Shown piece by piece: positions 1 to 61,396 of a stretch of DNA of 64,000 bases. The stretch is from Neophaeotheca triangularis (taxonomy: Eukaryota), in NCBI GenBank assembly GCA_054600435.1, contig BAAIJX010000007.1, positions 496,001 to 560,000 of the forward strand, written 5' to 3'. Both the position numbers and the translations under genes were made by a program. The notes under the pieces are model-generated. The model did no database searches, was not told the DNA's origin, and saw nothing but the letters and a program-made list of their open reading frames with translations. The stretch's first letter is position 1, and each line of letters begins with the position of its first letter.

Positions 1-509
1 CAAGACCTACGCATCGGGCCCAGCGCAGGCTGCTCGATGTTCACGACCTCGTGGATCATGAACAGCGGGATGCAAGTCTCTGCTAGTCGGAGGCCGGGAA
101 CGTTGTACAGGGCGGGGACGTAACGCTGGGGATCCTGCTCCCGGCGAGCGACGGCGTCGACGACGCGGTAGACGGCGAGCTCGTAGATGCTGCCCGCGAT
201 GCCGTGCTGTTCCAAGCAGCGCCTTAGCATGTAGGGGACGCAGAAGGACTCGTCGGCCGAGAGGTAGTCGTCGGTGTCGATGTGGGTGACGATTTGGCCC
301 GTGGCGCTGATGTTGATGTCGTGCTCGCTCTCGCGAGGGTGCTTGCGGTCGTTGTTGACGATTTCTACCTTGCGCGCAAAGGGAAGGGTGCCGAGGATTG
401 GGTGGTCGCGTTCGATGAGGGTGAAGCCGCGGTGGAAGTACTCGAGCCCCGTGGCTGCTGGGAGGGAGCTGGGGATTGTGGGGGTCGTATTCGTTTGAGG
501 AGTCGCCAT
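1..509 (-). CDS. Hypothetical protein, 3' end runs off the window
   Basis: ATG at 509-507 opens a stop-free frame to base 1 (MATPQTNTTPTIPSSLPAATGLEYFHRGFTLIERDHPILGTLPFARKVEIVNNDRKHPRESEHDINISATGQIVTHIDTDDYLSADESFCVPYMLRRCLEQHG...). Codons are mostly C/G-ending. Absent from the ORF track because no stop lies in the window. Confidence 0.7.
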   Translation of the reverse strand, partial: MATPQTNTTPTIPSSLPAATGLEYFHRGFTLIERDHPILGTLPFARKVEIVNNDRKHPRESEHDINISATGQIVTHIDTDDYLSADESFCVPYMLRRCLEQHGIAGSIYELAVYRVVDAVARREQDPQRYVPALYNVPGLRLAETCIPLFMIHEVVNIEQPALGPMRRS

Positions 510-4083: not shown

Positions 4084-4555
4084 TGCGTGGTATGGACGAA
4101 TAAGTTGATTGCAGGCTACAGAACGCAAAGGGACCGAAAAATGCAAAAGTCGACCTCCCAAGGTAAGGTAGGTAAGCTAGCTAGGGTAATGTATGAAAGT
4201 GTCGGGTACCTGAGAGTTGCATTCGATCTGCCCGCTAGCCCGCCGGTTGCCATTGCCATTCATCCTCGGCTTAAAGAGAGCTGGAGCTGGAGGTCATTAG
4301 TATTAGGTACTTATTAATCACGTGTTTCAACGTTTCTGCCTCATAAGTCAGGCCAATATGACTTCCCCCGCGCGAATCTAACACGGTCGCGTCTGTGGTC
4401 GCGCTTGCCGCTTTGGTCGTCATTCTTCCCAACCACCGGGCAGCTGCATCTTTCATTTCACGGTGGTCACCTTTCGTCCAGAGCGTCTACTTAGTACAAT
4501 TCCTTTCCTTCAACCCCTTGCGATAAGAGATACACCCTATCTTCCCCACGACGCC

Positions 4556-5323
4556 ATGGCCAAAACAGCAAAATCAACCTCAGACGTCCACACCCGCAAA
4601 CGCCCCTACCAACCCTCCATCACCAGCTTTTTCAACCGCAATGCCGACTTAACTGCCTCTGGACTCGATGCCGGAGATCTAACTTCACCACTCTCCCCAC
4701 CTCTCCCCGCCGAAACCCAAGCCTCACTCCTCAGCGTAGGCATGCGTGTGCGCAAATCTGTACCGGAAGGCTACAAAACCCACAAGACTCTTGGTCCGGA
4801 TGGCTTTCCCTTCCCAAGCACGGCGCCAACGGCAGTCGCGGCGCAAAGACCGATGTACAACAGCCAAGACTCTTCGAGAGAGTTGACACCGTTCTGCGGC
4901 TTGCACAAGACGGGGGGTTTCGGGCAACAGGAGGGTGGTTGGGTGCCTGCTAGCTCTGCGCCGGCGGCGATGCAGGGACAGGAGGATGAGGAGCCTGTGA
5001 TGCCCGGGTTGAGTATGTCGCAATCTACATTATCGGGCACTCAGGGTAGTTTTGGGGATTCGGGTAGAGGTTCTGGAGTTGCTGCGCACAAGAAGAGGGG
5101 TTTTGAAGAGGATATTGAGGATGACATGGACGACTACTTTGATGAGGTGGATTCTTTAGATGTGAGCAAGTCTGGGTATGGTGGTGCGGAGAGGCCTATG
5201 GCTAGGCTGAAGGGAGCGATGAAAGGGACTGCCTCTGCGGTCACAGTGCGCGGCGTGGGCGATGATGATTTTGAGGAAGCAGGTTTCTTGGCACCACGAG
5301 ATGGTATGGATGTTGATGCATGA
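4556..5323 (+). CDS. Ribonucleotide reductase inhibitor-family protein (Spd1/Dif1-like)
   Basis: First ATG at 4556 (GCCATGG). Contains QASLLSVGMRVRKSVPEGYK, the hallmark of the fungal RNR-inhibitor family, and an N-terminal QPSITSFF PIP-box-like motif followed by NR. Otherwise disordered and acidic. Confidence 0.8.
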   Translation: MAKTAKSTSDVHTRKRPYQPSITSFFNRNADLTASGLDAGDLTSPLSPPLPAETQASLLSVGMRVRKSVPEGYKTHKTLGPDGFPFPSTAPTAVAAQRPMYNSQDSSRELTPFCGLHKTGGFGQQEGGWVPASSAPAAMQGQEDEEPVMPGLSMSQSTLSGTQGSFGDSGRGSGVAAHKKRGFEEDIEDDMDDYFDEVDSLDVSKSGYGGAERPMARLKGAMKGTASAVTVRGVGDDDFEEAGFLAPRDGMDVDA

Positions 5324-15421: not shown

Positions 15422-17523
15422 ATGGAACCGCCAACTACATTTAAATTCCCCGGCGAGCCAGCCAGCGCACACTCCCCAAGACGCTCAAATGGCACGCGAC
15501 CCGCAGCATCAACAACAACATCATCTCCCTCCAAAGAATCACGGCGCGAACGTAGTGAAGCTTCCACAGGCAGCCCGCCACGAGAATCTTCGCCTTCACC
15601 TTCGCCTTCGCGCAAAACGAATCTCTTCGCCGATTATCACCCAGTCTCCCCATCGAAAGCATCCAGTTCTGGCTTCGTCCTTCCGCAATCGCCGTCGATG
15701 CCGGAAATCCACGCCATGCGCGGCCACGGCTACACTAACAGTGATGTGCAAGGCCTCGTCAAACGATTCGAGCATTTGGATGTCCGCGATCGCGATGCTG
15801 AGAGTGCTGAGCGTCGGCGGAGACACGAGGCGGAGTTGCGGAGGGCACATATTGCGAGGGAGGAAGCTGAGAGCGATTGTCGCAGGTATAGGGAAGAGTT
15901 GAGGAGTTACAGAAAGGATCAGGACGAAAGTCGAGAGCGGGAGCGAAAGGTCGCGAAGAGGTTGGAGGCTGTTATGGTGAGTTGACAGCGTGAGTGTCAA
16001 ACGATGTTTAGCTTCGAGTGCTGATCAATTTCCTACAGGAGGAGTATTCTCGACACAAAGAACAGCATGCTTCCCAAAATTCGATTTACGAGAAGGAGGT
16101 CCGCAAGGCGAGAAAAGAGGCTTTCAAGTCTTCATCAGCGGTGCTAAAGCTCCAAGAGGAGCTAAAGTCAACGCGCAATAGCCTGCGCATCACTCAGAGC
16201 GGGTTCGAGGCGAACAAGCAGAAGGTGCAGCAACGGGAGCAGGAGACATTCGAAGCGCAATACCAGTTGGTTGCCGTACAAGAAGAGCTAGAGAAGCTCA
16301 AACAAACGATGAAGATCGTAGAGGAGGAAGCGCAAGCATTGAAGACGAGCCTGAAGGAGGAAGAAGTTGCGCGTATCGCGGCGGAAGGGCGGATAGCTTT
16401 GCCTGCCGCACCGGCCGATGAGGACGAACTCCAACCAAGCCCACGAAAAGCGTCACCGAAAAAGCGTAGTCCGAGTCCACTTTCTGACGACAAGGAGAAT
16501 GTGCACGCACTACCGAAGAAACATCCGGAGACCAAGGCGCTCGAGGAGCAATTGCTCAGGCAGAAGAGGCGTTTGCAGGAGGCCGAAGAGATTGTCAGCT
16601 TCATGCGCATGGAGTGCCAGTTCCGTTGCTGTGCTTGCAGGACAGGCGAACCGCACGGTCAGGACTACTTCCACGCTAGCGGCCTGGTGATGGAAGAACA
16701 AATGGCACGCATCAAGGCCGACATGGCAAGCTTCTTATCGCCACCAGCCAGTGTTTATGAGCAGGAAGGCATGGAAATTGACGCTCAACCCGAGCCCTTT
16801 CAAGACGAGCAGCAAGAAACTGCTTCTCAAGTCAACCAGTTCTCACGGGACGAGTCCACACAAGACCAACAACCTGAGCAAGAGCCCTCCAATATCGAAC
16901 CGGACCCAAACCAGCACATGACTGTGGCGGAAGGCGAAGCAGCAAGCGAGCAAAACCGAAACATACAGCAAGAAGCAGAGGAAGAGGTATTACAAGCACC
17001 CCAACAAACACCCTCGCACCCAACCACCTCTTCCAGCGGGGAAATCCCAATCAACGACAACGAAACAGCGATCGAAGACGCCCCCATAACCCCACCCCAA
17101 CACCGCACCTCCCAACGCCCCCACCACTCCATCCGCACCATCACAACCACGACCACAATCCCAACCCACTTCAACACGCCCTCCCACAAACCCCCACCCA
17201 TTTCCCTAACCAACGGGAACGAGCAAGAGAACATCGACCCCGACCCCTCAGCCCCGCAGCAGCAGCAGCAGCAGCAGCAAGGCTTCGACCGCGCAGCCGC
17301 TCTCGCAGCTATCCAATACCGTCGCGGTCGCGCCAAGAGTATCGCAGACGGCCATTTGACGCCGCGCAAGCAGATGATGGAGGGGGCGAATTTGAAGGAG
17401 CGGAGGGATGTCAGCGCGCCCGCGCTCGGTGGCAAGAATGCCGGAGTGGGAGTTGGGTATGGAGGTTTCGGGAGAGGCGGGGGTGGGAGTGTGGGCAGGA
17501 GTGGGAGGGGGAGGATGGGGTGA
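15422..17523 (+). CDS. Uncharacterised coiled-coil protein with Cys cluster, KEN box and CDK consensus sites
   Basis: ATG 15422; intron 15977-16038 joins two ORFs in frame. Long heptad-rich region, MECQFRCCAC, DDKENV, SPRK/SPKK/TPRK, polyQ and Gly/Arg tail. Confidence 0.8.
17257..17280 (+). repeat. (CAG)7CAA encoding Q8
   Basis: Read directly from the sequence. Confidence 0.9.
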
Positions 17524-23112: not shown

Positions 23113-24129
23113 ATGGCCTCTCTCCTGGCATACTTCAACAAACTCCTCCCCTTCGCCACTCCCGGAACACCATTAATTCAAGACCTGACGCATCTGGCAG
23201 CCATCTGCACTCTCCTCTACTTCGCGCCGCAAATCCAAGAACGGCTCCAAAGGCCATCAGGCGTATTTCAAACCAACCAACACCAGGAAGAGACAGCCGG
23301 CGCCGGACGTGACAATAACGAGCCAAACCCCAACCAACCAGCGCAAAACAACGCCCAAGACTTCCCCGACGGCGCCGAAGCCGGTTTCAACCACCGCGAG
23401 CCCGCACCAGCCGCAAACCACCAACACGAAGACCAAAACCTCCCCCGAGAAGAAGATGACGACGACGACAGCGACGACGACGACGACCCCCAACCGGGCC
23501 CGGCAAACCGCAACCCCGCCAACGCCGAAATCCCACCCCAACGCAACGTCGGCGCCAAAAAGCTCAAGTCCATCCAACGCCGCGACCAACGCCGCGCGTA
23601 CCATGAATTCCAGCGGTCGCAGGGCGAAGCGCAGCGGGCGCGTGATGCAGAGGGTGCTGAGGAGCGGGACGCGGCGCTCGCGGCTGAGAAGGCTAGGCGG
23701 AAAGCCAAGGAGGCTGAGGTGAGGGCGAGAGAGGCTAGGGAGAGGGAGGTGAAGAAGGAGGGGGAGCGGAGGGAGTGGGAGGAGGGGGTTAAGCGGCGCG
23801 AGGAGGTTGTGAGGATTGTGAGGGGGGAGCTGGCTGGGAGGGGAAGGGTGGAGTTGTGGGAGGTTGCGAGGAGGGTTGGGGGTGACGTTGACGATGAGTG
23901 GGTTGAGAAGGTGTTGAGGGTTGCTGGGGTTGTTGGCGGGAAGGGAGTCGTGGATGGTGGGGTCGTTATGGTTACCGGGAGGGGGTGGGTTGTTAGGGTT
24001 ACTGGGGAGGATATGAGGGTCGTGTATGAGAAGGCCGCGAGGGAGAAGGTGGGAGATCAGGATGGAAGGGTGTCGTTGCAGCAGATTGGGACGATGTTGA
24101 CGCGGCGAATGGACGAAGTGGCTGAATGA
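23113..24129 (+). CDS. DDRGK1/UFBP1-like protein (N-terminal hydrophobic anchor, GAKK motif, long charged helix, winged-helix-like C-terminus)
   Basis: ATG 23113 (ATCATGG), 338 aa, no intron. Hydrophobic LAAICTLLYFAP, acidic tract, NVGAKKLKSIQRRDQRRA, E/R/K-rich helix, then VMVTGRGWVVRVTGEDM...GRVSLQQIG. The CDS is clear; the family call is by eye. Confidence 0.7.
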   Translation: MASLLAYFNKLLPFATPGTPLIQDLTHLAAICTLLYFAPQIQERLQRPSGVFQTNQHQEETAGAGRDNNEPNPNQPAQNNAQDFPDGAEAGFNHREPAPAANHQHEDQNLPREEDDDDDSDDDDDPQPGPANRNPANAEIPPQRNVGAKKLKSIQRRDQRRAYHEFQRSQGEAQRARDAEGAEERDAALAAEKARRKAKEAEVRAREAREREVKKEGERREWEEGVKRREEVVRIVRGELAGRGRVELWEVARRVGGDVDDEWVEKVLRVAGVVGGKGVVDGGVVMVTGRGWVVRVTGEDMRVVYEKAAREKVGDQDGRVSLQQIGTMLTRRMDEVAE

Positions 24130-24289
24130 GCTTGTTCGCAGGAGCCTCATGAAGCATATTAAACCCTCCCAAGTACCCTATCTCTTCGGAGATCACGGTG
24201 TACGAGAGCTACCAAAAAACGTGCTGTCTACCCATCGATACCGCATCAACCACCACAGCACCTCATACCTTCCCCAAACCACATCCCTC

Positions 24290-25534
24290 TCACCCCTGCC
24301 TAGCAAACCCCAACCTCGGCGAACTCTGCGTCTGATCGAAAACAACAAACACAGACTTGAGGAAGACATCTCCAAAGATACTAAAAGGCAAGCCCGTATC
24401 CCTCTGAATCCCACCAAAACAAGTCGTCCCCGCATTATCAATGGGCGCGTAATTGATCAACCTGCCGGGGACGGCAAAAGCGGTCCCGCCAATCGTCGCA
24501 GAGAAAGAGGGCAGCGAGCTACGGCAGGGGAAGGTGTAACCGCCTTGGTTCTGGTCGTAGCCGGCGCCGCGCACGTTGGAGTAGTAGTCTGCGACAATGT
24601 CCGGGGGCAGGTAGAGCAGCGTGGTGCCGGTGTCGGCGATGGCGTCGCCGATGGTGCCGCGCGTGCCGCCGCTGCCGATTGCGTAGTTGCCGGCGTTGAA
24701 TTCCCAGAATCCGTTGCGGGTTAGCACGGGTGTGTAGGTGATGGGGCCGGTGTAGCGGGTGTTGTCGATGAAGCCGAAGCCGTAGGCGCCGGCGGCGCCG
24801 GCTTTGAGGTCGGCGGTGAAGAGGGCTTGTTTGAGAGTGGGCTTGACGGTGTCGAAGAAGGTTTTGGCCTGGTTGGGGCGGACGGTGTTGATTGCGCTGA
24901 AGGCGAGGCCGAGCAGGCCGTCGTTGGAGTTGCTTGCGAAGGACGAGGATACCGAGGTGGCGGCTTCGACGACTTGTCTGGTCGCTGTTACTGGGCCTAC
25001 GACTACTTGATCGGCGTAGACTACGCCGCTGGCGCCGCTGCCGTCGCCGTAGGAAATTTCCCACGTTTGGCCTTGGAGACGCTTCGACTCGCTGGTGGTG
25101 TAGATGTCGTGTCCGTTGGCCAGTGTGGACGGAGTGAGATCGGAGAATGCCCAGCTATCTGACGTTAGCATCGTATACTAGTAGAAAGGGCAACGCCATA
25201 CTCACAGATCAGCACTTCCGGTATCAAAGTCCAGCATCACCGTCTGCCCGCCGATGCTGACGGGCGAAAGGTACTGAGAATCGAATGCTTGGGGGTTCGC
25301 AGTGACTGATCCACTTTGCGCAGCCGCGGCAGCGACCTTGACGTCTTGCGGCGCTTCCGCGTTCCAGTGGGCGTACTTCTCGTACGTGTTCATCATCGCC
25401 AAGGGTCCATTCTTCAGCACCTTGCCCTTGGCCTCTTGGACCAGTTCAAAGGTTGTTGGCTTGCCGTCGGTTGGAGCCGCTACGGCCAGCGTAGCTGAGG
25501 CCGCAAGAGCCAAAGAGGTGTATGAATAGCGCAT
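24290..25534 (-). CDS. Secreted aspartic endopeptidase (A1 family, aspergillopepsin/penicillopepsin-like)
   Basis: Signal peptide MRYSYTSLALAASATLAVAA. Catalytic LDFDTGSADLW (split by intron 25205-25155) and IADTGTTLL. Flap WEISYGDGS, DGLLGL, SIFGDVFLKS. Confidence 0.95.
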
Positions 25535-29732: not shown

Positions 29733-32066
29733 TCAATGCCGGTATTGGCGACGATGACCAACGCCCTGTTCATTCAATACCATGGAGAGCTTCCCATCGC
29801 CCTGTGCCTTTATTGTTACCAGAGTCTCTGGGCGCTTTCCCTTCTCTAATTGCGTCGTCAACTGCACATCAACGGGGTGTGGAGAAGCCAGCGCGAGAGC
29901 CATCAGCTCATGCATGCCTCCCCAGGCGGAGCTTGCCCAGGCCGCTCCACATGCGCGGAAATATAGCATGTATAGTGCGTACAAGACGACGAGCGCGATG
30001 TGTAGAGAGAGTATGGCAATGGCGAAGATGACTGTCGTCTCACGGCGGCCATAACCCCTCCCATATCGCTGCACCTTCCAGACTATTGAGTAGAGACCGT
30101 CGAGATCGGTTATCGGGAGCCAAAAGGCATCAGTTCGAAGGTCGCCCGCTTGAGTCAAGAGGTCCTGCCAAAGACTTGAGCCGTTGTTGTGGGAAGCGAG
30201 TACGAGCCCAATATTTAGCTGTAAAGACACGCGAGACAATCCTTCGGCTACAGTGAGGGACAAGATCGTGGCCATTGTGCGGGCGATGTCGTCGTGGTCG
30301 AGCTTTAGGCTTTCTGCAGTAGTCCCGTTATTCCTCGGGGGAACGAATGAGGCAAACTGTTGGTCATCTGCGTCTGATGTGCGATTGGAAAGGAAGGTGC
30401 TCATGTAGTACTCGATGGCTGACATGTTGGTAGCCCCGCTACCATTGTGCGCGGCACGCCAATAGTCTTTATTGAGAAGGTCTGCCCAGGCTGGGGAGAT
30501 CGCTATGTTTCGGGCAGGTAGTCCACCCGGGACCGGCTTCTCTGGAGAGGTGCTCCAGAATGCTTCCAAAACAGAGAGGTCGGATATATTGCTCGGCAAA
30601 CGACTGTCGACTGGGTCGTATTCTGTCGAGACACCAGCCCAACGTGCATCGATCAAGCAAGGCAGTAAGAGGCTATCTTGGCGATCCTCAGTGGACCCGT
30701 TGGAGTACCTTGTCGTGATGGCCCTGGGTACTGTGACCACTGCACCTAGTGAAGGGAACGGGCCTTCTCCTTGAAAGCCCGACGCGGCGTCAAACCATTC
30801 GAACGTTGAAAAAGTGAGGTCCTCCCTTGTATAGTTCCAAAATCTACCTGGTATCTCCCAACGTGGTAGGTCTCGGTAACGGTCGTCATGGAAGCCATCT
30901 GAGCTTAAGTTGCGCATTCCTGAGCTGTGGAAGTATGGTGTTATCCCTTCTTGGACCTCTTGCCATAAGTAATGAGCGCATTGGACCTGCACAACAGGAG
31001 CCTTCAAATTATCAAGGGTAGGCTCAAGCCTTGGCCTCCTCACTTTGTTAACCTGCCCCACTTCATTCTTCGAGATGTAGTTCCAGAAAGTCCCTGCAAT
31101 TCCTCCCAAGGAGCTATGTAGGGTAGTGGCGACGGCAACGTGATCGGAGTCTGGCTTGGAAAACTGCAGTGTGGCACTTAGGGCTCGCTGAGTTTCTGCG
31201 ACGGGTATTTTCACAGCCGTTACCGGATTCACCCCGCCCAGAAAAATAGCTTCTGTCAAGGACTTGATGTCTTTGCTGCCACCACCAGGACAGAAATGAA
31301 GGCCGCTGGTGTTGCAACGAAGCAATGAGTCGTCAATGTCCAATCTTTCAGGGTAAACATCACTCTGAGATCCGGCGATGAACGTGGTTAGTGCCCTCCC
31401 ATTGTACGGATCTCGAAGAAGCCACCAATCCAGAGAAGGTACTATGATGATTGCGGACGCAGGGCCAACGAGATTGGCATATACGACTCCCGCTGCGAGA
31501 ACAAGAGCCAGAATCCACGTCCTTGCACACTTTCGAGTCAGTGGCCTCCTAAGAGCGCTCGAAAAGAGATAAGGAACAGATCCAATCTGGTATACACCAG
31601 CAAGCAGACCCCAGGCAATTCCGCGTCCCAACAGCATGCGCCTGGCCGCATGAAGGGCGATGGCAGATATTGACGCCATGATGAGGATTTCGTGAATCTT
31701 GGCAGCAAACTGCAGCGCATTTTGTACCTCCGCTGCTCCTAGGCGGGACATGGGTTCGTCTTGAGAAATTTCATCAGACCAGTACACTTCGCGGAAGCAA
31801 AGCTGGATGACCCCGACACTCGCACCCATGGACAAAAGGTGGATCAACCAAGAAGAGGAAAAGAAACCTCGGCAGAAGCTTCTCTCGATTAGGTCGCGGG
31901 GAGCTTGGGCTCTGGTCTCGCTGTCAGATTCCACGAGAAAAGCAGAAGCCTCGAGGGTGTTTTTGGTGGAATGAACCGGATGGATGCGATGCTCGTTCGA
32001 AAGGCTTTGGTGCTGGGGCGAATGGATCTCCCATCCACCCTCGTTCGAATTCGGGTTCACCGACAT
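29733..32066 (-). CDS. Hypothetical integral membrane glycoprotein, 777 aa
   Basis: Intronless ORF. N-terminal TM cluster (ALQFAAKIHEILIMASI, YANLVGPASAIIIVPSLDWW), a large Cys- and NxS/T-containing loop, and a C-terminal TM segment. Function unknown. Confidence 0.8.
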   Translation of the reverse strand: MSVNPNSNEGGWEIHSPQHQSLSNEHRIHPVHSTKNTLEASAFLVESDSETRAQAPRDLIERSFCRGFFSSSWLIHLLSMGASVGVIQLCFREVYWSDEISQDEPMSRLGAAEVQNALQFAAKIHEILIMASISAIALHAARRMLLGRGIAWGLLAGVYQIGSVPYLFSSALRRPLTRKCARTWILALVLAAGVVYANLVGPASAIIIVPSLDWWLLRDPYNGRALTTFIAGSQSDVYPERLDIDDSLLRCNTSGLHFCPGGGSKDIKSLTEAIFLGGVNPVTAVKIPVAETQRALSATLQFSKPDSDHVAVATTLHSSLGGIAGTFWNYISKNEVGQVNKVRRPRLEPTLDNLKAPVVQVQCAHYLWQEVQEGITPYFHSSGMRNLSSDGFHDDRYRDLPRWEIPGRFWNYTREDLTFSTFEWFDAASGFQGEGPFPSLGAVVTVPRAITTRYSNGSTEDRQDSLLLPCLIDARWAGVSTEYDPVDSRLPSNISDLSVLEAFWSTSPEKPVPGGLPARNIAISPAWADLLNKDYWRAAHNGSGATNMSAIEYYMSTFLSNRTSDADDQQFASFVPPRNNGTTAESLKLDHDDIARTMATILSLTVAEGLSRVSLQLNIGLVLASHNNGSSLWQDLLTQAGDLRTDAFWLPITDLDGLYSIVWKVQRYGRGYGRRETTVIFAIAILSLHIALVVLYALYMLYFRACGAAWASSAWGGMHELMALALASPHPVDVQLTTQLEKGKRPETLVTIKAQGDGKLSMVLNEQGVGHRRQYRH

Positions 32067-33128
32067 GGCTCTCGCTTTATGAATGGAGAGGCTTGGAAGA
32101 CGGAGGCTTGCCTCGGTATCTAATTTGATCGCTGGCTATTAAATGCGCAGAGAAGTATTGGCCTCGGACCTGTGGTGGGAGAATGAAGAGTAATTTGGCA
32201 CAATAATGCCCTCCAGCTCCCCCGCGACTGACTACTCAGATATATTGTCGTTCGTGTTCCAGGCTCAAGGCTTGTGCGACTCTCAGTGTCGCTCCACGAG
32301 GCTCATAGGTGTGTAGGCTGTGCTGTGCTCGGTTCGACGGCGTGCACGAGGCTACCGAAAGTTGTCCTGGCATTCGCTGAAATATATCTCGCTAGGAAAG
32401 GCTGCGTCAACGCTACAGGCTGACATGCATCAGGCTGGAATCATAATCAAGCTGCTATAGATCAGACTGAAGGAGCCCGCGAGGCATCTCGCTGATTCAT
32501 TATCTCTTCCGTCTTCAATCAATAGAAAGTCTTCCCTATTACTTGCCTTTTCAACACCATATGCCAGTGTTGTCTATGTGACCATGTGAGAACATTGGTC
32601 CGTTGTTCTTCTTTTGGCCGAAGCTGCCGCGTTGTCCTCTGTACAGCCTTGCAGCTACTATTAGCAGCAGTCAAATGTACATGCAGTGTGCAGCCTAGCC
32701 GTAGCCTGATCTCATGACAGCATCTCTTCTAGGAAGTCCGGGTGCGTCAGGGAAACCGAGTTGAGGAAATCAGCTCTCTAGGGGCTATTTCTGGCAAAGA
32801 GAGCAGCATGTTTGCTCCTGGCTGCGTCGAGGACAATGTACAAGGTTACCTTGGTACCTGGTTAAACGAGCAGGTGGAGGTAGCACGTCGTGCAACCCTG
32901 GGCTGTCCCCTCAAGCCAACTGCCGACGTTGAGCCGTGGACAAAAGTATTGTTCGTCCGCTTCTTGGAGGCCGTTCCATTGACATGCTCAAATCGATGTA
33001 GGGAAGATAACCTTGACTAGGTTTTTGGAAGTGTCACGGCACATACCAGGATGCAAGTACGAAGACTGATTCGCTGTTCAAACCAGCACCCCGATTCCAA
33101 CCAACCTTCAGCTCACTCGCATGTCCCC

Positions 33129-38006: not shown

Positions 38007-39164
38007 CTACGACAGATCCATCCAAGCCTCTTTCTCCCGCGCCTTGGCCTTGGCCTTCTCCTTCTGCTTAGCCTGAACACTTCGAGGCACAAACCTCAGA
38101 GCGGCAGTCATGTTAGCTGCCAGCTCGTCAACGTCCGCCGAGGACTTTTCATTTGCTCGACCCATCGCCTTTCGAAGAGACCCCAGCCCCGCCATCTCAT
38201 CAACGACCTCGTCCATGGTCGCCCTTGACGACTGCGATCTGGCCAAAGAGGCACGCGGTGACTTCAATGTGCCGTCTTTGAACTCGAAGACCGTTGAACT
38301 GGCTGGGGTCTCTTTCGCAGGGGTGGTCGCTCGCTCGCCGAGTGCCTTGGGTGAAGTTCTGGCAGCAGTTCTCAACTGGCCAGTTCGCTGTGGTTGTGGA
38401 AGGTCTTCGGAAGTAACGTCGCGAGCAGAGACGCTGTCAGGGCTTTTGGCTTTCGTGGTTCGCTGTCCCTCATTGTTGGGTCCTGACTGCGTGATACCAC
38501 CACGAACCCCAAAAGCCGTTATGCCACCCCCCGGCTCGGCAGAGCCCTTGCTGCTCGATGGCGATATTGAAGCTTCCTGCGACCTACTAGCTACAGACGA
38601 GCTATCGTCCTCCCTCAAGTTCTCCCTACTGCTTCTCCTGTGCCCATCATCATCAACGCCGGGCCTCAACAGACTGTTTCGTCCTGCTATCAACCCTGTT
38701 TCCATGATCCTGAAGTCGTAGTTCTTGGGATAATGGTGCTTTTCGATCAAGTGCATCTTCCTCTTCACCCGATCTCGGCAGACCTTGTCGCATCCCTCGA
38801 CGAAGCACCCATACATTCTCTCACCCCGATCGCGCCTTACAGCGACGAACGGATCGTGGCACTCGGCGTGATGGAGGTCCAGTAACCGGGAGTCAGGAAA
38901 GCTCCTGTGACAATTCAACATAGGACAGTCATGTGAGTGAATGCTTAGTTTGTGAGAGTCGTATTCGCCGCGGTTCTCAAAGCGTAGTGGGCGGTGGGAG
39001 GGGCGCCTACACCAGAATGGACCCATGTCGTTGGTCGGTGTAGTATCGCGGTATTGTATGTATTTGGTCACAGGGCCTTCCAATTCTTCGGTGGCTATGG
39101 GTGATATGCTGTTGTTGCTGTCCGAGTCTTGTTCGTAAGCGAAAGGGCGTTTGATAGAAGGCAT
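38007..39164 (-). CDS. C2H2 zinc-finger protein, ZNF511-like
   Basis: ATG 39164. CPMLNCHRSFPDSRLLDLHHAECHDPF and YGCFVEGCDKVC...RKMHLIEKHHYPKNYDF, plus a C-terminal ALRFVPRSV motif. Confidence 0.82.
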   Translation of the reverse strand: MPSIKRPFAYEQDSDSNNSISPIATEELEGPVTKYIQYRDTTPTNDMGPFWCRRPSHRPLRFENRGEYDSHKLSIHSHDCPMLNCHRSFPDSRLLDLHHAECHDPFVAVRRDRGERMYGCFVEGCDKVCRDRVKRKMHLIEKHHYPKNYDFRIMETGLIAGRNSLLRPGVDDDGHRRSSRENLREDDSSSVASRSQEASISPSSSKGSAEPGGGITAFGVRGGITQSGPNNEGQRTTKAKSPDSVSARDVTSEDLPQPQRTGQLRTAARTSPKALGERATTPAKETPASSTVFEFKDGTLKSPRASLARSQSSRATMDEVVDEMAGLGSLRKAMGRANEKSSADVDELAANMTAALRFVPRSVQAKQKEKAKAKAREKEAWMDLS

Positions 39165-39594
39165 CCTGCCGAGTGATCGGTCTTCGTGGCGGTGAGCGCG
39201 CAACGCCAACAGATGTCTGTGATGCAGTACATGTGAGTAACAACAGGCTTTACTGCCGGTTTATTAATCGTTCTTCGAGTCTGCTGAAGTGCTGGTAATC
39301 TGCTATCCCTCCCATAGGAAGCAATCCCTCTTTAGCTGAGGACATTGTAGTTCGCATTGTGAAGAAGCCACCACCTCCAAGAGCAAGCAAGTCGGTCTTC
39401 AGTCTCTCAGTCACTCGCCATCTTTACCTACCATTCTTTCAATTCTGCATTACTCCTTGTTCAAGAGCAGATATCCACGTTCTTTGTGAACATTTGCGAC
39501 CAGCCTGTAGATGGTGGACTCTTTTCACAACGTTGGAGCGAAACCAGAGCACCTCCACTTGTAGATCCCATCTTCAATCTTGGCATATCCGATA

Positions 39595-45939: not shown

Positions 45940-47633
45940 GATGTAGCGCGACAGTTTCAAAGATTACGAGGAGTATCTGGTGCATTTGGGAGGCGTTTAT
46001 CGTAATGGACACCCTCGAGAGGCTAATCGCTGCGCTGAGGGGATAGACGAAGAGTGTTTCTGGCCAAATGAGCATGAACCGGCATTTGGGGGTCAAGGCA
46101 ACGAAGCAAAGGAGAGGTTACGATGAGGCAATTTCAGGCTCTGCGGGTAGCGGAATGTTGTAACAGGGGCCGCTGAGCAAGTCTTCGGCGATCTGGAGCC
46201 AGATGTCTGACACCCATGGGCATAGGCTTCCTTGGTTGAGGCTCATGCAATGGATCATCTCGTCGAATGCGTGCCATCAGCTTCATCAGAGATGTGGTGT
46301 ACAGTGGCGGCGGGCTTTGCGCTCTACTACGGCGACTGCATGTGCCGGCATTGCGATCTGCGACTATTTTCAGTCTCGCACGGTATCCACGGACGGTGAT
46401 TGAGGCCACGATAGAGTATGAAACGCCAATAGTAATGTTCTATTCTTCAAGGATTGTTAAGCGTGCACTTGCGACGATCTCTCTTGTTAGTCAGGACCCG
46501 TCGGGACGCATTCAAAGCCCGATTTTGTCGATCCCCAAGGCTTGTTCCCACGACCCCCTCCTTGCGCGAACACGAAAAGCCAAAAGCTACAGATGCGTGC
46601 ATAGCGAGTACCTACCTCAGATACCTTTCATACCCGGCGGAGGCCGCTAACTCCGCAGAATAGGTATGCATTTGCAATCGTCCGTTCGCTGTCTTTAATT
46701 ATGCACGACGCCTCTGGAAACGTTGAGTAAACAGCAAATAATGCCAGAGTTGAGAAGTGCAAACTCTGGTCTGTATGCGTCTCTGGCCGTTTCCTCACAG
46801 TTCCTGGCTCCTGGCTCGCTAACACCCGCGGCCAAGGTACAGAGATATGAAATTCGTTCTGGAAGCAACGCGTGCATCCGGGCGCTCGGGGCTGGTCCAA
46901 TAGTGCATTATTCTTATGGGAAATGCCACGTCCCGAGCGGCCGCTGGTACCTCTTACTATTGATTACAACGCACGTCGCGATCAATCAGAAGGCTTGTCG
47001 TCGCCGATTTCGACTGCTCTGCGCAAACTCTGTTGTGCTCAGCTTCACAACAATCTTACTTCACGGATCACGGCGGATGCGATGCAAAAGCGTTCCGACG
47101 TCACCTCTGCTATGCACGACTCGCGGCCGTGTCTCCGCCCCCAATCCTCCACGCTCTCACCCAAAACCGACCCACGTGTGCATAACAACAGCGACCTGAA
47201 ATCCTAGAAACTAAATGACAAGCCACCAGCGCCAGGCCAAGGAGTTTCCGCGCTGACTGTGTTTCTTTTTCGCGCTCGAAACCGAACTTGGCGGTGTTCC
47301 CGGAAGTGCCAAAGCAGCGATCCGATGCGTTGCATATCATGGAGCTACCCAGGTACAGGAAAGATACACGTCCGTTCGCTTCGTCATCGTAGACTCTGAG
47401 TTTATGAGACCTAGGTGTCCAGACTCTTGGCCAGACGTCCATACATCAATAGGTTAACGCTCGCTTCCAATCTCATATGCTCCTCAAATTCACTTTCCAG
47501 CGCTCTCGTCGTCCTCGTTGTCCTGTAACGTCCAGCAGATCCATCCTTCAATTGTCGAACAAAACATCTCTAGAACCACTTGAGCAGCTTCAACCAATCT
47601 TTTGTGCCAAAGGCACGCCCTCACCGTCGCAAA

Positions 47634-50600
47634 ATGGCCTCCGACGGTAGCGGCATCATCCGCACCGCGTCTGGACGGCAGACCTACGCACCCGATGGTT
47701 ACGCAGTCAACGACTCCAGCCCGCAGGATGACAGCACTTTCACCCGAAACACCTCAAAAACCAGCGACTCCAGCGAGACCATTGCTGCACCCGTGAGCAG
47801 CAGTGATGATTTCATTAATGAGGAAGGCCAAGAGCGAGCCGAATCGCCGCCAAGAGACCTCAAACGAACGAACACCGTTGACCGGACTGCCTACGAGCCC
47901 GTTATCCCGGGCGACAGGGAGGCATTGACGCGATTGGCAACCAATGCCTCCCGCGTGAAGTCGCAGCAGTCGCGTCAGAACAGCTACGCTGGCAACAATG
48001 ATCTGGAAAGGCGAGGAACGCTTGATGGTCTTGAAGACGACGATCCAAAGCTTCAGCCTGGGAGTGCAAGCTTCGATTTGCATGCCTGGCTAAGGTACAC
48101 CATGAAGCAACTGGATTCCGACGACATAAAGACCAAAAGAGCTGGCATCTTATTCAAATCGCTTAACATCTCCGGCTCTGGAAGCGCACTCCAACTCCAA
48201 AAGAACGTCGGTTCGTTCTTCTTAGCTCCTCTTCGTGCGAACGAGTACCTCAACTTTGGATCCAAGCCTCGCAAGCAGATTCTCCGGAACTTCGACGGTC
48301 TGCTGAAGAGCGGCGAGATGCTCGTTGTACTTGGCCGCCCAGGATCTGGATGCAGTACGCTGCTAAAGACGCTGACAGGCGAAATGCATGGTCTTGCGCA
48401 AAGCGAAGATTCACATATCAGCTACAACGGTATCTCGCAGAAGCAGATGCTGAAGGAGTTCAAGGGGGAGGTTGTTTACAACCAGGAGGTGGACAAGCAT
48501 TTCCCCTTCCTTACGGTAAAGCAAACGCTACGGCACGCCTGCGCAATGAGAACTCCAAGCAATCGACCGAACGGAATGTCTCGCAAAGAGTTCATCGATC
48601 ACATTGTACACGTTGTGATGTAAGTGCGCCCCCCGAACACCCACGGACCCTGGCTGGCGGACTAACAATCAAAAAGGAACATCTATGGTCTTCAAGCGAC
48701 GGAAAATACCTTTGTCGGCGACGACTTCGTTCGTGGCGTATCAGGGGGTGAGCTGAGTCTTGTTGATTGTCTGACCAAGTGGTTTTACTGACATTGCTCC
48801 TCTAGGTGAGCGCAAGCGTGTCTCCATAGCCGAGCTCGCGACGGCCGGGAGTCCGCTCGCTGCTTGGGACAACTCCACCCGTGGCCTAGATAGTGCTTCT
48901 GCCCTCTCGTTCACCAAGTCCCTCCGCCAATCTGCAAACATTGGAGGCTCTGCCCACGCTGTCGCTATCTACCAAGCATCGCAATCTATCTACGACCAAT
49001 TCGATAAAGCCATAGTACTTTACGAGGGCCGCGAAATCTTCTTCGGGCCTACAGACCGTGCCCAGGGGTTTTTCGAAGATATGGGATGGTTTTGCCCACA
49101 GCGCCAGACTACGGGCGACTTTTTGACCTCAGTAACGAATCCCTCGGAACGTCAGACTAGGGAGGGCTTCGAAGGAAAAGTACCACGCACGCCCGACGAG
49201 TTTGAACAATACTGGAAGAATAGCCCGGAGTACGAGAATCTGATGCAAGAAATCGCCAACCACGAAGAAGAGTTTCCTGTCGGCAACGCTGGCCAGATCG
49301 ACTCTTTCCAGGCTTCGAAGAAAGACCAGCAGGCAAACCACACAAGAGCCAAGAGCTCATATGTCGTCAGCGTTCCTATGCAGATCAAGCTGAATACGAG
49401 TCGTGCATACCAGCGACTCTGGAACGACAAGGCATCTACTCTTACTACCGTGGTCAGCCAGATCGTCATGGCTTTGATTGTCGGCAGCATTTACTACGGC
49501 AGCCCTTCTTCGACTGCATCGTTCTTCAGCTTGGGCGCTGTTTTGTTTTTCGCCGTCCTTTTCAACGCTCTCATCGCTATTTCCGAGGTGAGATGATCAA
49601 TGCTGGGCATCAATGAGCTTATACTGACTAGCAGCAGATCAACGCACTCTATGCCCAGCGCCCCATCGTCGAGAAGCACAAGTCGTACGCTTTCTACCAT
49701 CCTGCTACGGAAGCCATCGCAGGCGTAGTGGCTGATGTAAGCACCTCGTATCCATATCCTAAATCGTAGCGTCTGCTAACAACTCTTTTTAGATACCCGT
49801 AAAGGTTTGTTCCATACTTCCACACGATGCGTCCCTGATTTCCCTCAACACCGCTGACTGGACCAGTTCTTGATCGCCGTTTGTTTCAATCTGATCCTCT
49901 ATTGGCTCGCTGGGTTGCGTGCTGCACCTGGTCAATTCTTCCTCTACTTTCTGGTGGTATTTATCTCGATGTTGTAAGTACCGAATTCAGCCAATTCAGG
50001 GGTTTCAAACACACTGACCACGAATAGCATCATGTCCGCCGTGTTCCGTACCATGGCAGCCGTGACCAAGACAATCTCACAGGCAATGGCGCTTGCTGGA
50101 GTGTTGGTGTTAGCTCTTGTCGTCTACACTGGGTTTGTTGTGCCCATTTCCTACATGCGGCCTTGGTTCGGCTGGATCCGCTGGCTCAAGTGAGTACCCC
50201 CTGAGTTTAGTCGTATTCTTGACACGCAACGCAAGAGACACTAACATCAAGATTAGCCCGCTCTTCTACGGCTTTGAGATATTAATCAGCAACGAATTCC
50301 ATGGCAGACGGTGAGCAAATAATCCACTGACCACGCCTTTGTGATACTGCTTACGAATAATTTCCGATTGCAGGTACGAGTGCGCAAATTTCGTTCCAGC
50401 CTACCCCGACCTCACTGGAACACAATTTGTGTGCTCCGTTGCTGGTGCTGTGGCCGGCGAACGTACTGTCAGCGGGGATGCCTTTATCTTAAACCAGTAC
50501 AACTACGCCTACTCCAACGTCTGGTCTCGCGACTTCCCCATCCTCGTGGGCTTCCTCATCGCTTTCATGGGATTCTACTTCATGGCCGTCGAGTTCAACT

Positions 50601-52984
50601 CCTCAACGACATCCAGCGCTGAGGTACTGGTATTCCGTAGGGGTCACGTTCCAGCCTACCTCCAGGATCTTGACAAGAAGCAAGCCAACGATGAAGAAGT
50701 GGGAGGCTCGAACGAGGGAGCCAATGCCGAGAAGGAAGGAGAAGGCGAACAAGACGTCAATGCTATTCCCCCGCAGACTGACATTTTCACCTGGCGCAAC
50801 GTTACCTACGAGATCCCGGTCAAGGATGGTAACCGAACTCTACTCGACAACATATCTGGATGGGTCAAGCCCGGTACACTGACCGCTCTCATGGGTACTT
50901 CGGGTGCGGGTAAAACAACTCTCCTAGACGCCCTAGCCCAACGGACTAGCATGGGCGTGCTTACAGGGGATATGTTTGTGAATGGCAAGCCACTCGATTC
51001 ATCTTTCCAGAGGAAGACCGGCTATGTTCAGCAGCAGGATTTGCACCTCGAGACAGCCACGGTCCGTGAGTCGCTGAGGTTCTCCGCCGTACTGCGGCAG
51101 CCCCCTACTGCCAGCAAGCAAGAAAAATACGACTACGTCGAAGAGGTTATCAAGATGTTGGGCATGGAAGACTTCGCCGAGGCCATCGTAGGTGTGCCTG
51201 GAGAAGGTCTCAATGTCGAGCAGAGGAAGCTTCTTACTATCGGTGTCGAGCTTGCAGCGAAGCCCAAATTACTCTTGTTTCTGGACGAACCTACCTCCGG
51301 CCTTGATTCCCAATCATCCTGGGCTATTTGTGCCTTCTTGCGCAAACTGGCCGATCATGGTCAGGCAGTGCTGTGCACGATCCATCAGCCTTCTGCTAGT
51401 AAGTTAATCGAAACTACCTTCACTGGAAAATCTCTAATCCGTTTCATAGTTCTCTTCCAGACATTCGACAGGCTACTTTTCCTGCGCGCTGGCGGTCAGA
51501 CCGTTTACTTCGGCGACATTGGCGAAAATTCACGAACACTTCTGGACTATTTTGAGAGCAATGGCGCTCGTCACTGCGACGACAAAGAGAACCCTGCCGA
51601 GTACATGCTGGAAGTCGCTGCGGACAAGGAGCACGACTGGTTTGAAACTTGGCAAAACAGCAAAGAAGCCACCAACGTCCAGACGGAGCTCGACAACATT
51701 CACAGAGAAAAGGAGAACGTCGAGAACACCGATGAAGACCCGACCGCACACCAGGAATTTGCGATGCCTTTCACCACTCAGCTCAGGGAAGTAACTGTAA
51801 GAGTGTTCCAGCAATACTGGAGGCTTCCCAGCTATATTCTAGCCAAATTTGGCCTGAGCTTAGCCAGTGGTCTGTTCATCGGTTTCTCGTTCTATGATGC
51901 AGACAATTCGACGCAAGGAATGCAGGGTGTTCTTTTCAGCATCTTCATGGTCTCTACCATTTTTTCGGTACGTCTGGCTCTTCCGATGGAGGGATCGTTT
52001 GCTAACATGTCGTCCAAAGTCTCTCGTGCAACAAATCATGCCGCTCTTTGTCACCCAGCGATCTCTTTACGAATCTCGCGAGCGCCCGAGTAAAGCGTAT
52101 TCGTGGCAGTCGTTCCTGATCGCAAACGTCGTGGTTGAATTACCTTATCAGCTCATCGCCGGAGTCATCGTCTTTGGTTCCTTCTACTATCCAGTAGTGG
52201 GCATTCAATCACCGGAACGACAAGGGCTTGTTCTTCTTTACTCGACGATCTTCTTCGTGTACGCTTCAACGTTTGCTCAGCTCCTCATTGCCGGCCTTCC
52301 CGACGCGCAGACCGCTGGTGGAATTGCAACGGTAAGTTACGCCCGTGATCGAGACACGATCGCTCCCAGTACTAATATCTGCCATGACAGACTTTCTTCA
52401 GTTTGCTACTTCTATTCAATGGTGTCATGCAGCCTCCGGACGATCTACCTGGCTTTTGGATCTTTATGTACCGAGTTTCTTCGTTCACATACTGGGTCGG
52501 CGGTATTGCAGCAGCCATGCTCCACGATCGTCCCGTCGTCTGCTCCGAGACCGAAATCAATATCTTTGATCCTCCCCCTTCCCAAACCTGCGGCGAATAC
52601 ATGGCGGCCTACCTTACGCAAGCCCCTGGAACGCTGCAGAACCCGGAGGCTACGGCTGATTGTCGTTACTGCGCGCTCAGCAACGGCGATCAATTCCTCG
52701 AGCAGTCCAGAATCTCTTGGGGGGATCGTTACTTCAACTATGGCATTCTCTATGCATATTTGATTTTCAACATCGCCGGAGCCGTGGCGCTCTACTGGTT
52801 CCTTCGTGTCCGGCCCACGAAGCAAAAGAAATCATCGGGGGCCGGTGGAAAGAAGATCATGGATGTGGTCAAGGGTCTCTTCAGCAACAAACCTCCCGCC
52901 AAGGCGCAGAAGGAGGGAGAACAGAAGACTGCAGACGGTAATCCTGGGCAGCAAGAGGAGAAGGAAAATCCCAGGGCTTTCTGA
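47634..52984 (+). CDS. Full-size PDR/ABCG multidrug transporter (NBD-TMD)x2
   Basis: NBD1 [34 protein letters not shown]2 [36 protein letters not shown]. Eleven introns: 48620-48676, 48748-48805, 49588-49637, 49737-49792, 49805-49866, 49974-50027, 50190-50256, 50311-50373, 51399-51449, 51968-52019, 52332-52390. Confidence 0.97.
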
Positions 52985-60996: not shown

Positions 60997-61396
60997 GATT
61001 GCAGATTGGAGACGCTATCACCACGTCCACTGGTTTGTTCTTTCTAAGTTGGAAAGGCTGCAAGATGTGTTGTGTTCGTACAGTAGACGTCCCGCCCACG
61101 AATGAGGTGACGTTGGCTCTCGCCAAGCCCCGAGAGTCAGCGGGGCAGAGCCTCCAACACGTCCATCACTCACGTCCATCCACCTTCTCCAACTGGATCC
61201 CATCCCATCCACATGCTGCTGCCAAGCCATCCCTTGTTTACAACTATCCATCTGTACACATTCCACTAAGGCCGACGAATGCTCTTCTTCAACAGCGAGC
61301 TTCGATAAAGGGTTGTGGTAGAGACAGTCAATCCGTAGGTTATCGGCAAATCTAACGAACCTGGAAAGCGGGATCGCCTCCCCCTTTCGTTTAACT

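Follow-up and report, generated by a model that had tools for sequence, protein, structure and literature searches.

Human DDRGK1/UFBP1 (PDB 8ohd, 8oj0, 8qfc, 8c0d and 8b9x) is the ER-membrane subunit of the UFM1 ribosome E3 ligase. As described in the available excerpts of PMC10937380, its helix docks beside the 60S exit tunnel, R265 of its DDRGK loop contacts UFC1 and CDK5RAP3, and the N-terminus of UFL1 completes its partial winged helix (pWH′) in the human complex, pWH and pWH′ forming a composite. Loss of UFM1 in fungi is stated in the accessible parts of three papers (PMC10183829, PMC8057497 and PMC4092871). Picchianti et al. (2023, EMBO J, PMC10183829) note, in the part of the paper at hand, that UFL1 and DDRGK1 are often retained together after UFM1 loss, "including Fungi", and that certain fungi keep UFMylation components; they suggest a UFM1-independent role for the pair. 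UFL1 has on the other hand been reported lost in Fungi, by Grau-Bove et al. (as quoted in the peer-review file of PMC10183829) and in the excerpted text of Tsaban 2021 (PMC8057497). The presence of the pair in Asgard archaea and in UFM1-less eukaryotes raises the question of a UFL1-DDRGK1 role apart from UFMylation (PMC10183829, same part).

The literature from 2023 on yielded nothing on ascomycete DDRGK proteins, and no paper was found that ties UFL1 to Pezizomycotina. A preliminary description of the locus discussed here presented it as encoding a DDRGK1-like protein in a fungal lineage thought to lack UFMylation. Its claim to novelty was overstated, as retention without UFM1 is already in print (PMC10183829, in the portion available) and at least four members of the family are already named DDRGK domain-containing in UniRef.

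Gene layout and relationship to DDRGK1

We analyzed a window of 64,000 nucleotides from Neophaeotheca triangularis (contig BAAIJX010000007.1), in which an open reading frame with an ATG start at 23113..24129 on the forward strand encodes 338 aa according to the ORF list and its translation. Homologues of 302-420 aa span 88-100% of the protein, and the first Met of the reading frame falls within an N-terminal block shared across a 40-sequence alignment. The strings quoted in the preliminary description (NVGAKKLKSIQRRDQRRA, EWEEG, RVELWEVARRVG, VMVTGRGWVVRVTGEDM and GRVSLQQIG) all lie in this frame, with NVGAKKLKSIQRRDQRRA beginning at residue 145 (nt 23545), and the proposed module order of N-terminal segment, acidic linker, basic tip, long helix and winged helix was borne out. 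The features, all on the forward strand, are:

23113..24129, + strand: whole coding sequence of the DDRGK1-like protein, single exon, 338 aa plus stop (ORF list and translation; homologue coverage)
23113..23250, + strand: N-terminal anchor region, residues 1-46, hydrophobic and conserved (columns invariant in 40/40 sequences), presumed to sit in a membrane
23251..23541, + strand: acidic, disordered, length-variable linker, residues 47-143 (composition, pLDDT, alignment indels)
23542..23622, + strand: basic helix tip R-N-V-G-A-K-K...R-A-Y-H-E-F, residues 144-170 (conservation; alignment to human I-G-A-K-K)
23548..23838, + strand: single long charged helix, residues 146-242 (DSSP on the AlphaFold model, pLDDT >93)
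23776..24003, + strand: winged helix equivalent to DDRGK1 WH1′, residues 222-297 (VIA-align, profile alignment to 8c0d_B, domain model)
23974..23988, + strand: wing loop T-G-R-G-W, residues 288-292, aligned with human D-D-R-G-K (HMMER alignment)
24004..24126, + strand: pair of C-terminal helices matching the partial winged helix (pWH′) of DDRGK1, residues 298-338, including G-R-V-S (fold match)

Searched against the PDB, the 338-aa protein had DDRGK1 chain 8ohd_C as its best match (E 0.0066), with GAKK aligned. A cross-class profile run against 177,635 PDB sequences gave three matches at E<0.01, all three of them DDRGK1 chains. These included 8c0d_B (E 3.6e-4, 23.4 bits, bias 0.0), matched over WH1′ and pWH′, and 8ohd_C (E 1.7e-3), where profile positions 26-291 were aligned with chain positions 20-297. 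The human DDRGK1 strings given in the preliminary description sit at aligned places in the HMMER alignments to these two chains. A profile made from Dothideomycetes only reached E 0.068 at best in the PDB, confined to the charged helix, and matches of the charged helix are biased by 20-45 bits. No DDRGK1 match in the PDB was obtained with single proteins from Orbilia, Pyronema or Saitoella, and the Saitoella protein as a query returned family members only.

Among the weak Pfam matches of the family, the DDRGK domain (PF09756) is the most frequent, being found at E≤1 in 11 of 40 members, and the Saitoella member was aligned to positions 24-187 of the 188 in the model. The 338-aa protein scores 8.8 bits (E 1.6), below the gathering threshold of 27.8 bits, which no member among the 83 distinct ones scanned attains (best 19.1, for P0209). 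Other Pfam matches, among them Borrelia_P83, Tom5, SPEF2_D5 and Mitofilin, were put down to the composition of the charged helix or the hydrophobic segment and dismissed. At E≤0.001 the family comprised 205 representatives among 1.84 billion proteins, and a word-indexed search gave 354 relatives at the same cutoff. Its members come from Dothideomycetes, Coniocybomycetes, Pezizomycetes, Orbiliomycetes and Taphrinomycotina, and the 40-sequence alignment, at 42-69% identity, contains 37 invariant columns. One fused form was seen (P0268, 611 aa, joined to an RNR-inhibitor domain), which is probably a merged gene model, so that no fusion hints at a partner, and no extra Pfam domains were present in ten representatives of 367-474 aa.

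In the AlphaFold model, residues 245-337 run strand, helix, helix, strand, strand, helix, helix, and the model made for residues 205-338 has a pLDDT of 93.4. Residues 222..338 of the full model were aligned by VIA-align with 8c0d_B 205..306 at Z 8.9, the alignment covering 101 of 102 residues. When the domain model was compared with 48,161 PDB representatives (VIA-wide), the sole match at Z≥8 was DDRGK1 chain 8c0d_E 213-306 (Z 8.7, rmsd 2.9, 94/94 residues aligned, domain-model residues 26-134), bearing in mind that a Z near 8 is possible for common folds. Ranks 1-3 were DDRGK1, followed by a cullin WHB chain (Z 6.5, 77 aligned). Foldseek placed DDRGK1 in all of the top seven positions when the full model was run against 350,542 chains and in ranks 1-5 with the domain model (E 0.01-0.035), the E-values being 0.01 or weaker throughout for both models. 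The nearest named clusters listed in the ESM Atlas all carry PF09756, the ten best belonging to one family or clan with a score of 0.83, and we take this as a lead only.

We considered whether the protein could be unrelated to DDRGK1, with a membrane anchor, a charged coiled coil and a generic winged helix assembled by convergence. The bias of 20-45 bits in the charged-helix matches, Pfam scores that all fall under threshold and the very common occurrence of winged helices (49 chains at Z≥5 among the 48,161) would be in keeping with this. Convergence nonetheless seems highly improbable, as the profile match on the winged helix is significant, free of bias (0.0) and DDRGK1-specific, the structural alignments cover DDRGK1 chains almost from end to end, and the order of five modules is shared, GAKK being aligned. 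In addition, among the 50 structural matches listed, the C-terminal end of the module, beyond residue 315, is reached by DDRGK1 chains and otherwise by just one UFL1 chain (9gy4_E) and one SelB chain. The preliminary description had let the DDRGK1 relationship depend on a profile or structural match of the C-terminus, and the relationship stands because both kinds were found there (profile E 3.6e-4 and structural Z 8.7). Tests of profile, fold and module order thus support the conclusion that the gene encodes a real, conserved and highly diverged fungal homologue of DDRGK1.

Conserved modules and UFM1-contact motifs

Residues 1-46 hold a Dothideomycete-type motif that is invariant in 40/40 sequences (N9, L12-P13-F14-A15, P17-G18-T19-P20, Q23-D24, H27-L28, L35-Y36, P39 and Q42). 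The N-terminal hydrophobic anchor described earlier is present as a conserved segment, but its hydrophobicity in this protein is marginal, the best Kyte-Doolittle 19-residue mean being 1.27 (residues 21-39). The corresponding mean is 1.05-1.76 in four other Dothideomycete members and 1.8-2.9 in 12 Pezizomycete, Orbiliomycete and other members, and in the orthologues from Pezizomycetes and Orbiliomycetes a clear hydrophobic signal-anchor takes the place of the Dothideomycete motif. The linker at residues 47-143 is 24% D/E with a net charge of −18 and is predicted to be disordered (pLDDT <50), with frequent indels in the alignments. Within it, a GAC repeat at about 23455-23490 encodes a run of Asp residues. 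A search for RNA runs of this organism found none; one other RNA run (X12) matched only this repeat and its flanks and carries no information on expression. Sequencing runs X3, X4 and X10, of unspecified kind, gave partial contigs with 95-100% likeness and no gaps.

The basic tip (33% K/R over residues 144-170) is the element conserved best across all classes, in the form GxKK...RAYxEF, with G147, K149, K150, R161, A162, Y163 and E165 invariant in 21/21 cross-class sequences. HMMER aligns it with human I-G-A-K-K (117-121), which is where the ordered DDRGK1 chain begins in ribosome-bound structures (chain ranges 117..304 and 120..304), and VIA-align matched residues 144..335 of the model with 8ohd_C 117..304. 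From G147 to R245 the distance is 98 residues in all 40 Dothideomycete sequences and 93-102 residues in the 21 cross-class sequences. The long helix was originally thought to end at EWEEG; this string is present at 221-225, but the helix continues to residue 242 and takes in the first helix of the winged helix. Retention of the GxKK tip, a helix of fixed length and the winged helix agrees well with the 21/21 conservation, the spacing of 98 in 40/40 and the fold match.

The UFIM, which in the human protein occupies residues 196-205 and separates the helix from WH1′, has no counterpart. Human "afvv" and the residues after it are insertions relative to the fungal profile, and the AlphaFold model has one unbroken helix to residue 242 where the human protein has the UFIM linker. 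The earlier proposal that the UFM1-binding FVV was lost is therefore in line with the profile alignment. Between the GAKK glycine and the first strand of the winged helix there are 109 residues in human and 98 in the fungal protein, the human numbering being anchored on R265 as given in the available excerpts of PMC10937380. In the wing loop, which reads T-x-x-G-W across the 40 sequences, T288 and G291 are each present in 39/40 and W292 in 40/40. Arg at position 290, equivalent to human R265, occurs in 2/40 sequences of the Dothideomycete alignment and 4/21 of the cross-class set. Loss of the DDRGK signature, as first described, holds for the family, in which the loop is T-x-x-G-W and the Arg is not conserved, but this protein itself keeps the Arg (T-G-R-G-W). 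The anatomy given in the preliminary description was right overall, since DDRGK1 is matched by both profile and fold, the modules are kept and the UFM1 motifs have no counterpart.

The Arg at the R265-equivalent position, along with the report of Picchianti et al., in its available part, that certain fungi keep UFMylation components, would suit a DDRGK1 orthologue that evolves fast but is otherwise ordinary and serves a complete UFM1 pathway kept by these fungi. We regard this as unlikely given that the UFIM is without a counterpart, that the Arg is kept in only 2/40 relatives and that fungal UFM1 loss is stated in the excerpts of all three papers cited above for it (PMC10183829, PMC8057497 and PMC4092871). 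Moreover, no UFM1-pathway Pfam domain was found among the 100 window ORFs of at least 130 aa, a set for which UFM1 itself is too short.

A proposed UFM1-independent scaffold

We propose that the gene is the ascomycete counterpart of DDRGK1/UFBP1 without the UFM1-handling motifs and that it acts as a UFM1-independent scaffold, a reading that we would put at a probability of roughly 0.55. The N-terminus would anchor the protein in the ER membrane with the remainder in the cytosol. Judging by the conservation of the tip and by the human structures, the basic tip may dock beside the 60S exit tunnel as it does in humans, and the rigid helix would keep the winged-helix module at a set distance from it. 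The C-terminus consists of a full winged helix and then a partial winged helix with nothing completing it. The lack of extra completing elements in pWH′, together with retention of the invariant Gly (G318 of G-R-V-S, in 40/40 and 21/21 sequences), speaks for a complement of the UFL1 type, and pWH′ could pair with a retained UFL1-like partner. Such a putative pair would form an ER-tethered, 60S-binding scaffold independent of UFM1 and might, for example, occupy or clear the site facing the translocon on 60S subunits that have terminated or stalled. In human extracts, release of SEC61 from the 60S needed UFMylation and the UFIM, and the ligase complex alone was insufficient (PMC10937380, in excerpt), a result that speaks against the human mechanism simply being copied without UFM1.

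It is also conceivable that the protein is a DDRGK1-derived membrane protein in a setting without UFL1 and UFM1, working alone or with a new partner recruited via pWH′ and/or the N-terminal motif, and that its role need not involve ribosomes (e.g., as an ER scaffold or ER-phagy adaptor). The surveys that reported UFL1 lost in Fungi (Grau-Bove et al.; Tsaban 2021, PMC8057497, both known here from excerpts) point this way, as do the invariant N-terminal motif gained by Dothideomycete forms and absent from Pezizomycete forms and the divergence of the protein below the Pfam threshold. We find this rather doubtful, however, because the best-conserved part is the basic tip, the ribosome-docking end in humans (available text of PMC10937380), the partial winged helix keeps its invariant Gly while lacking completing elements, and Picchianti et al. 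report, in the part at hand, that UFL1 is co-retained with DDRGK1 in Fungi.

The scaffold reading can be taken further, though only tentatively. Ascomycetes without UFM1 may have kept a trimmed DDRGK1 that lost its contacts to UFM1 and UFC1, with strong constraint persisting on the 60S-docking tip, the helix of fixed length and the half-domain for docking of the UFL1 type. This would be a separation-of-function form exposing an ancestral, UFM1-independent job of UFL1-DDRGK1 at the ER-bound 60S, to which Dothideomycetes could have added an N-terminal motif coupling it to a membrane or lumenal partner.

Because the ascomycete family naturally combines loss of the UFM1 and UFC1 contacts with tight retention of the ribosome-docking tip and helix length, culturable fungi could be used to probe the scaffold without UFM1. 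The Pfam DDRGK model misses this whole ascomycete branch, so that the pathway may be under-counted in presence/absence surveys of fungi.

Comparison with known systems

At 12-17% identity in structural alignments, the fungal protein is far from human DDRGK1 in sequence. Between the tip and WH1′ it is 11 residues shorter, with a continuous helix and without the UFIM, and T-x-x-G-W takes the place of D-D-R-G-K, the Arg not being conserved. The Dothideomycete forms are set further apart from the human protein by an additional, invariant N-terminal motif and by a hydrophobic segment that is weaker. The available text of PMC10183829 names no ascomycete and mentions neither loss of the UFIM or the DDRGK loop nor a fixed helix length or an N-terminal motif. 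With the UFL1-DDRGK1 pairs described in that text as retained, the present family shares the occurrence of a DDRGK1 relative in a group reported to be without UFM1. With human DDRGK1 it shares a putative N-terminal anchor, the acidic disordered linker, the I/V-G-A-K-K tip, the long helix, WH1′ and pWH′, down to the G-R-V-S turn of pWH′, and its C-terminal module superposes on the whole solved fragment of DDRGK1 (Z 8.7-8.9, rmsd 2.9-3.2).

Gene product and likeness to human DDRGK1

The ORF listing and translation place the DDRGK1-like gene at 23113..24129 on the + strand, running from ATG to stop and encoding 338 aa. The strings quoted in the preliminary description were all located where it had put them, with NVGAKK starting at residue 145 (nt 23545), and the module order it proposed was borne out by a composition check and structure prediction:

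Residues 1-46: N-terminus, hydrophobic and conserved
Residues 47-143: acidic segment, predicted disordered (24% D/E, net charge -18; pLDDT below 50)
Residues 144-170: basic segment (33% K/R)
Residues 146-242: single continuous helix, predicted with pLDDT above 93
Residues 245-337: compact domain, predicted as strand, helix, helix, strand, strand, helix, helix

The helix had been said to end at EWEEG, but the predicted helix extends beyond this point to residue 242. A hydrophobic N-terminal anchor had also been described; the conserved segment is present, though its hydrophobicity is marginal here, with a best 19-residue Kyte-Doolittle mean of 1.27 at residues 21-39. Around this weakly hydrophobic segment lies an N-terminal motif (window 23113-23250, residues 1-46) in which N9, LPFA, PGTP, QD, HL, LY, P39 and Q42 are invariant in Dothideomycete-type members (40-sequence alignment), whereas it is missing from Pezizomycete and Orbiliomycete members, whose anchor is plain and strongly hydrophobic.

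The Pfam DDRGK model scored this protein at 8.8 bits (E 1.6). At E<=1 it matched 11 of the 40 members, and of 83 distinct members scanned not one reached its 27.8-bit threshold (best 19.1 bits). Searched singly against PDB sequences, the protein had DDRGK1 chain 8ohd_C as its top match (E 0.0066) with GAKK aligned and a large composition bias, and single Orbilia, Pyronema and Saitoella proteins gave no DDRGK1 match. The Dothideomycete-only profile (A1, 40 sequences) found DDRGK1 at E 0.068, confined to the charged helix. With the mixed-class profile (A2, 21 sequences), the only PDB matches at E<0.01 were three DDRGK1 constructs. The best of these, 8c0d_B (E 3.6e-4, 23.4 bits, bias 0.0), aligned over profile 198-291 and chain 3-93, covering the winged-helix module rather than the charged helix, and full-length 8ohd_C followed at E 1.7e-3 (profile 26-291, chain 20-297). 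Next came calnexin, matched on the acidic part (E 0.023), and then a proteasome PCI subunit at E 0.74.

The full-length predicted model (mean pLDDT 76) was compared with 350,542 PDB chains in Foldseek, where the best seven matches were all DDRGK1 (probability 0.87-1.00), at E-values of 0.018-0.099 that, like all the Foldseek E-values, were 0.01 or weaker. VIA-align matched model residues 222-338 to 205-306 of 8c0d_B (Z 8.9, rmsd 3.2, 101 of 102 residues), and the other chains among the matches listed had Z 6.9 or less, most aligning 56-85 residues and ending at about 295-315. Two exceptions ran on to 336-338: the UFL1 chain 9gy4_E, with 97 residues aligned at Z 6.5, and a SelB chain, with 99 at Z 5.3. 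Residues 205-338 were also folded alone from a 56-sequence alignment (pLDDT 93.4, pTM 0.81), and DDRGK1 occupied Foldseek ranks 1-5. In a Foldseek-independent search of 48,161 representatives, the only match at Z>=8, a level that common folds can approach, was DDRGK1 8c0d_E (Z 8.7, rmsd 2.9, 94 of 94 residues; model 26-134, chain 213-306). Ranks 1-3 were DDRGK1, with a cullin WHB chain fourth (Z 6.5, 77 residues) and UFL1 sixth (Z 6.3). The nearest named ESM Atlas clusters among those listed all belong to the DDRGK family, the ten best sharing one family/clan (score 0.83), which we treat as a lead only.

The C-terminal relationship to DDRGK1 proposed earlier was thus recovered by both profile and structure. 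Because the matches are specific, cover the solved fragment in full, include a bias-free profile match and come with five modules in shared order, we consider the protein homologous to DDRGK1 with a probability of about 0.9.

Elements kept and lost

Across classes (A2), G147, K149, K150, R161, A162, Y163, E165, R196 and G318 are invariant, which makes the basic tip V-G-x-K-K...R-A-Y-x-E-F the best-conserved element. It aligns with I-G-A-K-K of human DDRGK1 (117-121), the start of the ordered chain in ribosome-bound structures (chain ranges 117..304 and 120..304). In the human system the helix of UFBP1 (DDRGK1) is described as docking beside the exit tunnel (passage in PMC10937380). All 40 Dothideomycete sequences have 98 residues between G147 and R245, with no indels in the helix, and across classes this distance is 93-102 (n=21; 94 in eight, 98 in seven). 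Since helix length is fixed while the acidic linker preceding it varies freely, the helix would fit a rigid spacer behind the tip. The two C-terminal helices (298-338) correspond to the partial winged helix of DDRGK1, with the G-R-V-S turn preserved; in the human complex this element is completed by the UFL1 N-terminus, as described in a passage of PMC10937380. Structural comparison with the domain model revealed no extra elements in the fungal protein able to complete it. The GAKK tip, long helix and winged helix are therefore retained, as had been suggested, judging by cross-class invariance, fixed length and structural matches.

Two losses had also been claimed, and both are supported. In the full-length alignment of A2 with 8ohd_C, the 'afvv' core of the human UFM1-interacting motif (UFIM) and the residues following it fall in insertions against the fungal profile, and the predicted fungal helix is unbroken at that position. 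The stretch between the GAKK glycine and the first winged-helix strand measures 109 residues in human DDRGK1 versus 98 in the fungus, and this 11-residue shortening may reflect loss of the UFIM (10 residues, 196-205; human numbering derived from PDB alignments and anchored on R265 as given in part of PMC10937380). The wing loop, D-D-R-G-K in human, is T-x-x-G-W in the fungal proteins, with T288 and G291 each conserved in 39 of 40 A1 sequences and W292 in 40 of 40. An arginine equivalent to human R265, which contacts UFC1 Asp50 and CDK5RAP3 (passage in PMC10937380), occurs in 2 of 40 sequences, the N. triangularis protein being one; in the cross-class set 4 of 21 sequences have it.

Distribution and genomic neighbourhood

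A word-indexed search returned 354 relatives at E<=0.001, the best 120 of which have 43-66% identity over 88-100% of the query. Every named relative among the matches listed is a black yeast or a leaf fungus, the genera including Friedmanniomyces, Hortaea, Zasmidium, Cladosporium, Dothistroma and Aureobasidium; Friedmanniomyces and Aureobasidium are Dothideomycetes by taxonomy look-up. We take Hortaea, Zasmidium, Cladosporium, Dothistroma and the other listed genera to belong there too. The 40-sequence profile matched 205 of 1.84 billion representatives at E<=0.001 (163 at E<=1e-10, 108 at E<=1e-30), which marks this as a small family of restricted distribution. Names were sampled for 30 representatives, those outside the named genera carrying none, and included Pezizomycetes (Geopyxis, Pyronema, Kalaharituber) and Dothideomycetes (Trichodelitschia, Bathelium, Microthyrium), both by taxonomy look-up, with Orbilia (Orbiliomycetes), Sclerophora (Coniocybomycetes), Saitoella (Taphrinomycotina), Tirmania, Bogoriella and Vezdaea. 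Since two ascomycete subphyla are represented, yet by few representatives, the distribution is best explained by ancient vertical inheritance followed by many losses. At least four members are labelled DDRGK domain-containing in UniRef.

The gene lies in an ordinary fungal chromosome, among genes for citrate synthase, an RNR inhibitor, importin beta, a short-chain dehydrogenase, an SNF2 helicase, a convergent aspartyl protease, arylsulfotransferase, carnosine N-methyltransferase, EST1, PEX11, a PDR-type ABC transporter, ARPC4 and others. A scan of 100 of the 104 window ORFs of 130 aa or more (the other four overlap the DDRGK1-like gene) turned up no UFM1-pathway domain. Features at defined positions are:

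24290-25534 (-): aspartyl protease gene (Pfam Asp, E 3e-59; ORF pieces 24290-25171 and 25202-25534)
47574-52981 (+): PDR/CDR-type ABC transporter, at least five ORF pieces in different frames
16012-17520 (+): 503 aa, no Pfam match at E<=1e-5
29736-32135 (-): 800 aa, no Pfam match at E<=1e-5
38010-39260 (-): 417 aa, no Pfam match at E<=1e-5
57420-59015 (-): 532 aa, no Pfam match at E<=1e-5
61322-62623 (+): 434 aa, no Pfam match at E<=1e-5

The transporter could be fragmented by introns or frameshifts. The protease has a signal-peptide-like start, and its gene converges on the DDRGK1-like gene, leaving ~160 bp between the two stop codons. A 297-aa ORF antisense to the DDRGK1-like gene (23257-24150, -), with a high content of P, L, S and H, is the mirror of a purine-rich sense strand (61% A+G) and most probably spurious. 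The GAC repeat at 23455-23490, which encodes a poly-Asp run, draws many unrelated RNA contigs (marine metatranscriptome), and these matches are no evidence of expression. In the only longer relative, P0268 from Oleoguttula sp. (611 aa), the DDRGK1-like protein is fused to an RNR-inhibitor domain (PF08591); this is probably a merged gene model of two genes that are neighbours in that genome. In the window the RNR-inhibitor gene is at 4382-5320, 18 kb upstream.

Possible function and comparison with earlier reports

The anatomical part of the preliminary interpretation is supported by these tests. Its functional part, a putative UFM1-independent factor acting on ER-bound ribosomes, is plausible but inferred, and would depend on a UFL1-like partner. 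SEC61 release required both UFMylation and the UFIM in the human system (passage in PMC10937380), which cautions against simple transfer of the human mechanism.

The UFM1 pathway is described as absent from fungi by Daniel and Liebau 2014 (PMC4092871) and Tsaban et al. 2021 (PMC8057497). Passages of Picchianti et al. 2023 (PMC10183829) report that UFM1 and C53 were lost in fungi while certain fungi keep components, that lineages which lost UFM1, 'including Fungi', have frequently kept UFL1 and DDRGK1 together, and that the two, traced to Asgard archaea, may have a UFM1-independent role. Its passages on fungal co-retention name no ascomycete, and our literature search (UFL1 in Pezizomycotina; fungal DDRGK/UFM1 from 2023 on, by title/abstract) found no description of the ascomycete family. 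The idea of DDRGK1 persisting without UFM1 in fungi is already in print, and what is new here is a defined ascomycete family, with the exact set of motifs that it retains or lacks, its fixed helix length and its N-terminal motif.
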